This document shows, one piece after another, positions 39,790 to 45,700 of a DNA stretch of 64,000 bases. The notes below the pieces were generated by a model. The model saw nothing but the letters and a program-made list of their open reading frames with translations, did not search any database and was not told the origin of the DNA. This DNA is from Mustelus asterias (Eukaryota): assembly GCF_964213995.1 (NCBI RefSeq), contig NC_135815.1, positions 17,670,001 to 17,734,000 of the forward strand. The letters are read 5' to 3'. The translations under genes were made by a program, and so were the position numbers. How positions within the stretch are numbered: position 1 is the first letter of the stretch; every line of letters starts with the position of its first letter.

Positions 39790-42700
39790 GTATTTGCTGT
39801 GGAGTAAACCGTCAGAGTGCCGAGTTGTCAGCATCAGCGCTGACAAGTTTGTCTTTCTGTTTCAAGTCAAAATCAAATCCTGATCCACATGGCACTTTTA
39901 AAATACATAACTCCCCGAGTGCCCAATTGCAATCTGCGCGTTAATCTTACTGATTGTATCTACCCATTCTGAATATTAGATAAAAGCAAATTACTGCGGA
40001 TGCTGGAATCTGAAACCAAAAGGGAAAATGCTGGAAAATCTCAGCAGGTCTGGCAGCATCTGTAAGGAGAGAAAAGAGCTGACGTTTCGAGCCCTGATGA
40101 CCCTTTGTCTGAATTTTTCCCCGGGCTGTACTGAAAATGAAGAGAGTTATGTCAAATTTCAATCATGACTTTACCCTTAAAGTTCAGTTTAAGGAGAAAT
40201 TGTCAGTTCTCCCAGTTTTAAAATTTGAAAAAAAAAACTCATTTTCCTGAGCTTGATATAGCTTGAACAGCGCCAGGGATCCGGGTTTGATTCCCAGCTT
40301 CAGTCACTGTCTGTGCAGAGTCTGCACGTTCTCCTATGTCTGCGTGGGTTTCTTCTGAGTGTTCCGGTTTCCTCTCACAGTCTGAAAGACGTGCTGGTTA
40401 GGTGCAGTGGCCGTGCTAAATTCTCCCTCAGGGTACCCGAACAGGTGCTGGAGTGGTGACTGGGGGATTTTCATAGTAACTTAATTGCAATGTTAATGTA
40501 AGCCTACTTGTGACACTAATAAATAAACGTTAAAAAAAACGAACTGAGGATTTTCTAGATTCTTCTTCACATTGGTCACATTGTCAGACTCAGATCCCCC
40601 CAGTAATGTACAGTTAAATTGTTTGATTGGCATAAGTTGTCGCATTGGTGTACCTGGAATACTGCTTCAATGTTCTTTTCCTTTCTTGCAGTATGTGGAA
40701 GGTTATGCGCAACTCAATGGATGAGATCATGCTCCAGAACATCGGAAAGTACAAAAGAAAGCAACCAGGATAGTATGATGTTAAAGCACCTGATTTCAAA
40801 AATAAAGTCAACCGGCCCAATTTCAGTAGCGGAATATATGAGAGAAGTGTTAACCAATCCTGTCACGGTATATAATTCATCATTGACTATTACAATTACT
40901 ACAATTGGCATAGACTTATTTTAGTGCTACTAACTGAGCCACTAAGAATTAATGTTCGCTTCTGAGTTAGAAGGTTGTGGGTTCAAGTCCCACTTCAGGA
41001 CTTGAGCACAAACTTTAGGCTGACACTCCAGTGCAGAACGTGCTGCACTGTTGGAGGTGCAATCATTCAGATGAGACATTAGAGCAAGGATCTTTCTACC
41101 CTTGGAGGTGGATATTAAAGATCCCATGGCACTAATTTAGGGAAGAGTAAGGATATTTATCCCTCAATCAATATCAGTACATTATCTGGTAATTATCAGA
41201 TTGCTGTTTGTGGGATCTTTCTGTGCACAAGTTCACAGCTGTATTTCCTACCTTACAGTAAGAGTTTTAACAACACCAGGTTAAAGTCCAACAGGTTTAT
41301 TTGGTAGCAAACACCGCTGCTCCTTCGTCAGATGGAGTGGAAATGTGCTCTCAAACAGGGCACAGAGACACAAAAATCAAGTTACAGAGTACTGATTAGA
41401 ATGCGAATCCCTACAGCCAGCCAGATCTTAAAGATACAGGCAATGTGGGTGGAGGGAGCATTAAGCACAAGTTAAAGAGATGTGTATTGTCTCCAGACAG
41501 GACAGCCTGCAAGTCCAGGAGGCAAGCTGTGGGGGTTACTGATAATGTGACATAAATCCAACATCCTGGTTTAGGCCGTCCTCATGTGTGCGGAACTTGG
41601 CTATCAGTTTCTGCTCAGCGACTCTGCGCTGTCGTGTGTCGTGAAGGCCACCTTGGAGAACGCTTACCTGAAGATCAGAGGCTGCATGCCCGTGACCGCT
41701 GAAGTGCTCCCCCACAGGAAGAGAACAGTCTTGCCTGGTGATTGTTGAGCGGTGTTCATTTATCCGTTGTCATAACATCTGCATGGTTTCCCCAATGTAC
41801 CATGCCTTGGGACATCCTTTCCTGCAGCGTATCAGGTAGACAACGTTGGCCGAGTTGCAAGAGTAGGTACCGTGTACCTGGTAGATGGTGTTCTCACGTG
41901 AGATGATGGCATCCATGTCGATGATCCGGCATGTCTTGCAGAGGTTGCTGTGGCAGGGTTGTGTGGTGTGGTGGTCATTGTTCTCCTGAAGGCTGGGTAG
42001 TTTGCTGCGGACAATGGTCTGTTTGAGGTTGCGTGGTTGTTTGAAGGCCAGAAGTGGGGGTGTGGGGATGGCCTTGGCGAGATGTTCGTCTTCATCAATG
42101 ACAATCATAAAACCAAGAAATAGTTGACATCTTACCCTTAGAGTGTCACTCGCTAAAGTACCCCTGCCAGGCCCAAGTTCTACGAGTTGAAACGTCTTTG
42201 GTTTACCAGCAGCCATCCACTCACTTACGCACCACACTCCAAGTAGCTTGAGGTGGGAAGAAAAAATACTTTAGATAACTCTTTAATATAACTGATGTAA
42301 TTTAGCTACAGTCCAAAGATGTGCAGGTTTGGTGGATTGGTCAAGCTAAATTACCCCTTAGTGTCCTGTGATCTGTACGTTGGGGGTGGCAAACTTTCCT
42401 TCCTTACAGCAGTGATTACACATTGAAAATACTTAATTGGCAAAAAAATGTTTTGAGATGCCCTGAAGTTGTGAAGGACTTTTCTTTCTTTATCTTCAGC
42501 TATACAATTACTGACCAATCATCTGCTTCAGAATTACTGTATATATCTTTTTTAAAAGCATAATTATGTAAATTAGCAAAGTGTGTGCATTATTAACTGA
42601 GATTATTGATGTAATCTGTTCCAGGGATATTATCAACACAGGGATGTTCTAGGACCACAAGGAGACTTCATTACATCACCTGAAATTAGTCAGATCTTCG

Positions 42701-45700
42701 GAGAAGTAAGCTTATGAGTAACTAGTTATGATTCTGATCATTAGTAGAACAATTTGATTGTAAGAAAGCAATATTTTGAATAATTTTAGAATGTAACCTG
42801 CTTTGGAATGGCTAACACTACATGCACTATTGAAATGGACTGTTATTAATGATATGCATATGATAACAATCACATATTTACTATATCATAGAATTGTAGA
42901 ATCACTACAGTACAGAAGGAGGCCATTCAGCCCATCAAATCTGCACCAACTCTCCAACAGAGGATCTTACCCAGGCCCTATCCCCATGACCCCATGTATT
43001 TAGCCCACTAATTTCCCCACCACCCACCCCCAACGTACAGATCACAGGACACTAAGGGGTAATTTAGCTTGACCAATCCACCAAACCTGCACATCTTTGG
43101 ACTGTAGCTAAATTACATCAGTTATATTAAAGAGTTATCTAAAGTATTTTTTCTTCCCACCTCAAGCTACTTGGAGTGTGGTGCGTAAGTGAGTGGATGG
43201 CTGCTGGTAAACCAAAGACGTTTCAACTCGTAGAACTTGGGCCTGGCAGGGGTACTTTAGCGAGTGACACTCTAAGGGTAAGATGTCAACTATTTCTTGG
43301 TTTTATGAATGCACAAACTAAAATTCCAGAGCATGAATTTGATAATGACTCACCATCTTATCTCCAGTACATATAAAAAAGTAGGTATTAATTTTAGTAA
43401 TTCTTTACACTCCTATGTTTTGTAATTGTGCTAAATATAATTCAGCTTCCTTTAATGATAGTATGGTTAATGGTTTATTTTATAGTACATTTCATAATGA
43501 ATTCAAACCATTGTAATTGAATATTGCAGCTTTGGTGCTCCTTTGTTGCTGGCTTTATCTGGCCTGGCCTCATTGGCTGGGGCCCACGCTGCAGCATTGT
43601 ATGTTTCATTGTAAGTCCACCTTTGTCCTGGGGGGTTACAATTGGCCAGAAACTGAATTGGACTAACCATATAAATACTGTCACTTTAAGAGCAGGTCAG
43701 AGGCAAGGGATCCTGTGTTGGGTAACACCTCCTGACTCCTTAAAACTTTCCACCATTTACAATGCACAAGTCTGGAATGTGATGGAATACTTTCCACTTC
43801 CTTGAATGAGTGTAGCTCCAACAACACTCAAGAAGCTTGCACCATCCTGGACAAAGCAGCCCACTTAATTGGCACCCCACCTACAAACATTCACTTCCTT
43901 CACCACTGAAGCACAGTAGCAGCAATGTGTCCCCTCTACAAGATGCACTGCATTAACTCACTAAAGCTCCTTAGACAGCACCTTCCAAACCCATGATCAC
44001 TACCATAAAGAAGGACAAGGGAAACAGACACATGGGAATACCACCACCTACAAGTTCCCCTCCAAATCACTCACCATCCTGACTTGGATGCTGTCCCTTC
44101 ACTGTCACTGGGTCAAAATCCTGGAACTCTCTCCCTAACAGCACTACATGACAGAGATTGCAACGATTCAAGCAGGCAGCTCACTGCCGCCTTCTCAAGG
44201 GCAATTAGGGATGGACAATAAATGCTGGCCTTGCTAGCGATGCCCACTTCACATGAATGATTTTTTAAAAGTAGAAAATATTTTAATAATATAAGAAAGA
44301 ATGGGGAAAAGATAGTCAGTAGTTTAATTTCAATGCTTTGGAAAATGTGAACCATATATTTTCTGGTGTTTCACATATGTTGCTGAGAACATGGTGCTCA
44401 TTGTTATGGAAGTCACTGTTTCACAGTCACTGAAATCCATGAATTTAGCTAAGCTAAACTGACTTTTATAGATTTGTTTGAAAATTAAATATTGATCCTT
44501 TTTAGTTTAGTTAAATGCAATTTCTCTTAAAGAAAGAGGCCACGATACTCCCATCCCGCTGCGCTAAAGAATTAGTACAGTGGGCCAGGAGAATCCCGCG
44601 GTGGCCGATTCGCAGGGTTTACACGATGTTCGCGCCCCGCTTGCGTCTCCCAGCGCTGGATTTCCTGCAGCGTCTGCTCTGTGCTGGAAATCAGCGGGGA
44701 GACGTACAGACCATTTAAATGGTCATTTCAATATTATTTGAATGTGATTAGCGGACCTGGGACTGAAGTCTTCGGGCCCGCTAGCATCTCCCACCCTGCC
44801 AGAGTATTTCACTCCGGTGGGGATTACACTAGCTCCCCACTTTCTGGGAGCTGGTGGCCCGACCCCTGCTCGAGTGAAGGGGAGGCAATCGGGGTCCCTG
44901 GGCATCTGCCCCCTGGGCATTGGCACTCTGGCAGTGCCAGCCTGGGCCTCCGACACTGCCCGAGGGCAGTACCTAGGAGGTGATCGGTGGGCGAAGGGGG
45001 TCCCGCTGCCACTCTGCAGTCGGGATTGGTGGGGAAGGAGGGAGGCCAGTGATCGGGGCGGGCTGGGGGAGGGGGGGTCAGCCTGCTTGGGGAATGCAAT
45101 TGTCGGGGGGAATCGGTGGGAGGAGGTGGCGTGGCTGGAGATCGGGGTGGGCCGGGAGGAAGTGGGTCGGAGCTCAGCCCAGGAATGGTCGGGGGGCTAG
45201 CAATCGGCCTGTGGGGGAGGGGGGGGGGGAAGAGCTGGCGTTGCAGGGTCGCAGTGCTGGCCAGCAATCGGGAGGCCATCAGTGCAGGGCCATTGCGTAG
45301 GCACCAATCTTGGTACTGACAGATCGGCGCATGCACAGTAGCCCGCTCAGCGAGCTGATTTCAGCCTCTCCAGTGGGAATAGACCCCGCCCCCTAGTTTA
45401 TAGTGATTTTCACGCTGGTGGCCACTGCAGTGCACAGAGTGAGGGAGATTCTTCTCTGAACTCCCACTGAAAAAACAGTGTGAATTACTCCAGTTTTCAC
45501 GTGAATTCAACACTTCAAAGTTTATTGTGGGAGAATTCTGCCCAGGATGTTCAGACATGGGCATTTTCTTTTTTTTAATGCAGCTGGCGAAACCCATCGG
45601 TGTTGCAAAATTGACAAATTACATTGGCATATTAAATCCTATGCCTGTTTTAGGGTAGTTCAACAGATAATGATATTGTGTGAATCTAACTGACACTGCC

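Follow-up and report, generated by a model that had tools for sequence, protein, structure and literature searches.

Penelope-like retroelements are known to occur in a head-to-head arrangement (PMC3846280, PMC8557442), and a purified Penelope-like protein cuts and extends both DNA strands in vitro (PMC11167929); the way in which these elements finish integration and leave inverted structures was described as still undefined (PMC8557442; here and below, published work is represented by excerpts of the papers cited). For LINE-1, three cases of reciprocal-end inversion and three cases with sequence templated from nearby DNA were reported (PMC11702581), and foldback inversions, mostly of 5–34 bp, are found at double-strand breaks in yeast (PMC11724301). 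At the RNA level, an engineered 297/297 reverse-complement pair around exon 6 of mouse Tbxt caused more exon skipping than the Alu pair (PMC10901737), and deletion of one Alu cut skipping by ~1 to more than 40 percentage points in seven reporters (PMC13019944). Here we describe a Penelope-like element in intron 2 of the NDUFAF7 gene of Mustelus asterias (contig NC_135815.1, positions 17,670,001–17,734,000; this whole stretch of 64,000 nt is called the window, and coordinates without a prefix are positions in it), which is joined to an exact inverted copy of host DNA that contains the whole of exon 4 of the same gene.

The inverted repeat is genuine. Its two arms (42105–42389 and 43024–43308) are exact reverse complements of 285 nt with 0 mismatches, separated by a spacer of 634 nt that holds exon 3, in agreement with the geometry given in the initial annotation of this DNA; extended to 42102 and 43311, they reach 288 nt with a single mismatch. 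Apart from a run of N, this pair is the sole exact inverted match of at least 30 nt in the window, the longest exact inverted match in shuffled windows was 16–19 nt (3/3 shuffles), and a search of the whole genome (3.68 Gb) found the arm sequence only at these two places. The left arm belongs to a young retroelement insertion, and we consider it very probable that its origin is tied to that insertion. The locus is composed of the following features:

40693–40867, + strand: coding part of exon 2, with a GT donor at 40868, phase 0, open into exon 3; the 5' boundary is approximate
40961–41258: left half of an old interspersed repeat, ~70–85% identical to other copies, the target of the insertion
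41244–41258, + strand: left copy of the target-site duplication, 15 nt, the last 2 nt shared with the 3' end of the element
41257–42104, - strand: 5'-truncated Penelope-like retroelement, comprising the end of the open reading frame with a putative GIY-YIG-type endonuclease region (one stop codon) and the 3' region, without a tail
42102–42104: outer junction, a 3-nt microhomology common to the element family and to the source at 43309–43311; base 42104 matches neither
42105–42389, - strand: left arm, a derived inverted copy of 43024–43308, within intron 2 of NDUFAF7
42390–42394, + strand: inner junction, 5 filler bases without microhomology to the source
42395–42409, + strand: right copy of the target-site duplication, 14/15 identical to the left copy, at an offset of 1,151
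42410–42491: right half of the old repeat
42625–42705, + strand: exon 3, 81 nt, located within the loop of 634 nt
43024–43308, + strand: right arm, the original sequence, whose own context is present in the related organisms B and C
43167–43277, + strand: exon 4, 111 nt, including the glycine-rich motif ELGPGRG and the PF02636 and 5ztz matches
46386–46599, + strand: exon 5, with a phase-0 acceptor

The insertion amounts to 1,151 bp in total, made up of the element, the inverted copy, the filler of 5 bases and a target-site duplication of 15 bp, and it lengthened intron 2 from 606 to 1,757 nt. The target 15-mer corresponds to the middle of the old repeat, other copies of which run through the site (5/9 of those fetched match the left half to or near the site, and 9/9 match the right half). 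Sequence of the element family runs on past 42104 in 28/29 other loci, which identifies this position as the 5' truncation point of the window copy, and the arm starts within 3 nt of it. The copied segment was taken from a source 614–900 nt away from the insertion site and comprises exon 4 in full, flanked by 143 nt of intron 3 and 31 nt of intron 4; a fragment resembling a short interspersed element (SINE) sits within the arm. A search for the source of the filler returned one nearby 8-mer match, at 41009, which is within chance. The right target-site copy is pyrimidine-rich and acceptor-like, ends in CAG and lies 215 nt upstream of the true acceptor of exon 3; this acceptor-like site is older than the insertion, one base excepted.

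The interval 40600–43023 was compared in relatives using four sequencing runs, including X1 (organism A), X3 (organism B), X7 (organism C) and X13. In organism C (~95% alike), one contig of 782 nt covers 40984–41250 and then 42402–42921, skipping exactly 1,151 positions, i.e. it represents the empty site. Since this contig runs straight across, the arm is recent and lineage-restricted, and not a conserved regulator. In organism B (~98% alike) the alignment of the contig ends at 42402, leaving 50 letters unaligned, as expected from an empty site, and this relative probably lacks the insertion as well, judging from the aligned sequence. Base 42401 of the right target-site copy looks derived, as both organisms align only from 42402. 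The inner junction between arm and spacer is spanned by one 605-nt contig of run X1 (42311–42915), with 79 letters on the arm side and 4 differing letters; X1 may be the source sample itself and thus is not independent support. Run X13 was considered as a candidate RNA data set and rejected: the single contig unique to it extends out of exon 3 into intron 3, and the run behaves as low-depth DNA.

The gene that received the insertion is NDUFAF7 (+ strand): exon 4 matches PF02636 (E-value 8e-12) and the PDB entry 5ztz, "NDUFAF7 homolog" (E-value 8e-12); the gene encodes an NDUFAF7/MidA methyltransferase, with the PF02636 domain present and the reading frame intact. The frame into exon 5 stays open when exon 3, exon 4 or both are removed. 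The exon sizes and reading frames given in the initial annotation are correct, as is its placement of the ELGPGRG motif in exon 4. This motif belongs to the S-adenosylmethionine-binding site of class I methyltransferases.

The element family is present in high copy number: the search returned 1,028 candidates, and the 39 other matches listed are 96–97% identical to the window copy, which itself contains no reverse transcriptase. The family copy L127 includes a stop-free frame of 912 residues with a match to RVT_1 (E-value 8e-10), and the window fragment shares 94% amino-acid identity with its C-terminal part:

L127:318–3053, - strand: the L127 frame, belonging to a long head-to-head pair whose centre, near 3963–4094, is palindromic

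At the end of the open reading frame we spotted by eye a GIY-YIG-like motif whose halves have two cysteines between them, which fits the published description of endonuclease-bearing Penelope-like elements (PMC8557442). Pfam searches gave no GIY-YIG match in the window fragment or in L127; the Atlas neighbours of the fragment (0.92–0.93) carry GIY-YIG (10% of members) or HTH_animal (18%). No hammerhead ribozyme, a feature of the pseudo-long terminal repeat in the canonical clades, was matched at E-values up to 1 in 40800–43400 or in L127, with the reservation that divergent forms may escape the models and some clades are devoid of it, and no Rfam family reached the gathering score in 40800–43400. 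MicroRNA-like matches in L127 were rejected, as they reflect only the palindrome. A tail, known as an optional feature of 30–40 nt in such elements, is present in several other copies of the family and missing from the window copy.

We surveyed 8-kb regions around all 78 non-self places listed, merged to 75 loci, together with 20 controls ~200 kb away; these 75 loci are the best matches to the window copy rather than a random sample of the family, and tandem arrays were filtered out. Head-to-head pairs were found in 42/75 family loci, indicating that both break ends are commonly extended. Copied flank DNA at the edge of the element was detected in 2/75 loci (95% interval 0.3–9%) and in 0/20 controls:

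L137:1674–5126 (G000:C11:20056400–20064400): head-to-head pair with a 429-nt direct copy, 99.3% identical, at the internal junction between the halves
L092:2799–4729 (G000:C6:95497100–95505100): 722-nt inverted copy, 98.2% identical, in which 235 nt are element 3' end and 487 nt are flank

The L137 copy combines the last bases of the right element with 418 nt of unique flank, and a target-site duplication lies on the outside; a target-site duplication was looked for in L092 and not found. In both cases the element-host junction is itself part of the copy; a pre-insertion transcript could not have provided it, so that the template must have been DNA or the copy arose in a second event. Together the two loci point to DNA-templated synthesis from a resected break end, as far as can be read from their sequences. 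Eight candidates (L076, L077, L082, L084, L103, L105, L156 and L163) were discounted as independent young repeats because their matches to other loci are about as good as those within the locus; among them, L084 is ambiguous (99.4% vs 98.0%). The direct duplications in controls L152 and L153 are not near this element. Local inverted duplications off the edges of this family are present in 4/95 loci:

L080:5663–6108, L108:5088–6258, L135:1841–2369 and L155:1384–5567: off-element inverted duplications, 55–300 nt, 96–99% identity

The anatomy of the NDUFAF7 insertion suggests the following course of events. The endonuclease of the element would have cut the old repeat in intron 2 with a stagger of 15 nt, and the left end would have primed reverse transcription from the element's 3' end, which stopped after ~846 nt. 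The right end would have been resected over at least 900 nt, and its 3' strand would have folded back, copied itself from 43024 to ~43311 and been released, after which the two new 3' ends may have annealed at the 3-nt microhomology and been filled in. The outcome, the element, the inverted copy and the filler between two copies of the target site, is what is observed. At the RNA level a fraction of the transcripts is predicted to form a 285-bp stem that loops out exon 3 and covers exon 4, which would give rise to in-frame, likely inactive isoforms and edited RNA, while sufficient normal mRNA would remain, so that the effect would be an unselected by-product. We regard this overall scheme, i.e. 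a copy made during repair of the insertion, predicted pairing, and unselected partial skipping and editing, as the best explanation, with a probability of about 0.6. As for the origin alone, a single event by DNA foldback is favoured on balance; this path is the simplest. It accounts for the order and orientation seen at the locus, and its template is of the kind used in L137 and L092.

Several observations weigh against this scheme and have to be considered together with the alternatives to which they lend support. The inner junction, where the foldback should have primed, contains 5 filler bases instead of a priming microhomology. Yeast foldbacks, which likewise are inverted copies of break-adjacent DNA followed by end-joining, are mostly of 5–34 bp and microhomology-primed (PMC11724301), whereas here the copy is 285 bp long with a loop of 634 nt and no such microhomology. 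Filler without priming microhomology suits a single RNA-templated event, in which the reverse transcriptase would have jumped at the 3-nt microhomology onto an unspliced NDUFAF7 transcript, copied 285 nt backwards and left untemplated bases at the right end. The arm has the orientation expected from a switch onto the sense transcript, and a jump of this kind would begin at the junction with the microhomology and finish at the one with the filler; moreover, template switches between RNAs have been reported for LINE-1 (PMC11702581), and host sequence that contains introns can be moved by Penelope elements (PMC3846280). Against the jump, L137 and L092 copy the new junction and therefore need a DNA template or a second event, and we consider it unlikely, although sequence alone cannot tell an RNA from a DNA template at the NDUFAF7 locus itself. 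The support that the other loci lend to the foldback has its own weaknesses: 2/75 against 0/20 is not a significant enrichment, and only 9/20 controls hold any piece of the element; the L092 flank is an older repeat, with other copies only ~80–87% alike; and the off-element duplications mean that this genome produces local inverted duplications by other routes too.

The perfect identity of the arms is a further difficulty. The window element differs by 3.0% from the nearest fetched copies, and in 39 head-to-head pairs the two halves show a median difference of 3.4% (minimum 1.0%). On a lenient count, which finds 9 rare variants in the 845 positions of the element, 4.5 arm differences are expected and P(0) = 0.011, a value that has to be read with the fact that the inverted repeat was selected for being perfect; on a strict count, 1 private variant leads to ~0.6 expected differences. 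Such figures, with 0/285 differences in the arm vs 2 changes in 18 junction bases and 1–9 rare element variants, would fit an arm added later by break repair at the 5' junction of the element, or an arm homogenised afterwards by gene conversion or assembly polishing, and so would the 4 differing letters of the X1 bridging contig. However, the end of the arm is 5 nt away from a target-site copy that is intact, there is no trace of a second element half, and in L137 the captured flank differs by 0.7% vs 2.6% between the element halves, so that element divergence overstates age; we consider a two-step or homogenised origin improbable. Perfect identity would also be produced by a chimeric or fold-back read in the assembly, and two observations would fit such a read: none of the pieces listed spans the outer junction, and the arm has a depth in X1 of 18, which is not clearly doubled relative to 13–16 in the flanks and also weighs against the main scheme. 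Such an artefact is nevertheless extremely unlikely, since the target-site duplication fits the empty site of organism C to the base, the junctions bear microhomology and filler scars, and an X1 contig crosses the inner one.

The initial annotation called the arm built-in antisense, a term that suggests an evolved device. If the arm were a cis-antisense regulator, evolved to tune NDUFAF7 by controlled skipping or recoding of its exons, this would account for the perfect complementarity across a whole exon and both of its splice sites and for the in-frame skips, and in TBXT a lineage-specific inverted pair did become functional (PMC10901737). The structure of the locus speaks against this interpretation: the arm belongs to a young retroelement insertion that is absent from organism C and probably from organism B, its boundaries are set by insertion scars, a SINE-like fragment lies inside it, exons 3 and 4 would be of phase 0 in the gene structure shared by the relatives regardless of the arm, and local inverted duplications are common, with 5 in 95 loci of 8 kb besides the one in NDUFAF7. 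An evolved regulator is therefore very improbable, and the chance that the arm has any selected function is equally slight or smaller.

Returning to the repair-copy scheme, pairing of such an arm is physically plausible. The predicted fold pairs the arms fully, with -566 kcal/mol for the duplex vs -65 and -62 kcal/mol for the arms alone, a trivial consequence of complementarity. The end of the left arm lies 235 nt from the acceptor of intron 2, and the donor of exon 3 lies 318 nt from the start of the right arm; with these distances, pairing would have to compete with the removal of intron 2 over a few hundred transcribed bases. The Tbxt and Alu reporter results make some skipping and editing the likelier outcome, and we would expect a measurable effect on the RNA with somewhat better than even odds. 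Exon 4 contains 26 A, of which 16 would give non-synonymous changes on editing. Near-complete masking of exon 4 is unlikely, unless the allele is present in one copy, because homozygous knockout of Ndufaf7 is lethal in mouse (PMC10790356). A stronger proposition, that the arm is a natural cis-antisense allele lowering an essential complex I assembly factor, in this lineage alone, through skipping of exons 3–4 and ADAR recoding of exon 4, and at the same time that resected target DNA is routinely copied into the junctions when Penelope elements integrate in this lineage, planting perfect inverted host copies at many sites, seems doubtful when both parts are taken together.

Other features of the window lie outside the insertion:

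33232–37245, - strand: exons of the CBF/Mak21 family (CEBPZ-like gene), head-to-head with NDUFAF7
21284–21553, 45876–45999 and 53202–53534: further pieces of the same Penelope-like family, the first being a short head-to-head pair of 3' ends
7700–7899: assembly gap, a run of 200 N, distant from the inverted repeat

Human CEBPZ is likewise a head-to-head neighbour of NDUFAF7. Two 1,451-nt copies of another retroelement (21551–23001 and 54146–55594) are 97% identical to each other and ~90% identical to copies elsewhere, and the first of them begins directly at a Penelope-like tail.

The inverted copy is likely an accidental by-product of retrotransposition with a plausible effect on splicing. 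Junctions that copy the target's own flank, together with the new element-host junction, are direct scars of the integration step and can be counted genome-wide. In addition, the locus offers a natural setting in which to ask whether a whole exon's perfect antisense copy in an intron can outcompete splicing in an essential gene, with the relatives that do not have the arm as controls; if the RNA proves to be unaffected, the arm merely adds to the repair scars of a genome rich in repeats.

In the literature searched, which covered few subscription papers, we found no capture of target-flank DNA by Penelope in this group and no antisense exon copy in NDUFAF7; each ingredient has a published precedent, and the combinations for which none was found are flank capture at a Penelope junction and an exon serving as the arm. 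The element resembles the endonuclease-bearing Penelope-like elements (PMC8557442, PMC3846280, PMC11167929) in its family's reverse transcriptase with a putative C-terminal GIY-YIG-type region and two cysteines between the motifs, and its insertion shares with theirs the 5' truncation, the short target-site duplication and an inverted segment at the 5' junction. It differs in that the inverted segment is host DNA from 614–900 nt away and not a second copy of the element; host DNA captured between pseudo-long terminal repeats (pLTRs) has been described (PMC3846280), but is not reported there as a copy of the target's own flank. In common with the LINE-1 cases (PMC11702581), one end consists of retroelement cDNA and the opposite end of local DNA, inverted or templated, with microhomology or filler at the join, whereas those events were induced in cell culture and the NDUFAF7 insertion involves another class of element, is germline and inherited, and holds a whole coding exon in the copied piece. 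Several hallmarks of a templated insertion at a retrotransposon junction are found here: a copied segment between target-site duplications, absent from the empty site, with a nearby source and with microhomology and filler at its junctions. As in TBXT with its AluY/AluSx1 pair and the engineered 297-bp pair (PMC10901737, PMC13019944), a lineage-restricted insertion has placed an inverted pair of ~290 nt around an exon within one pre-mRNA. Unlike in TBXT, where skipping has been observed rather than only predicted, one arm in NDUFAF7 is the next exon itself with both of its splice sites, so that masking and recoding may be possible besides looping.

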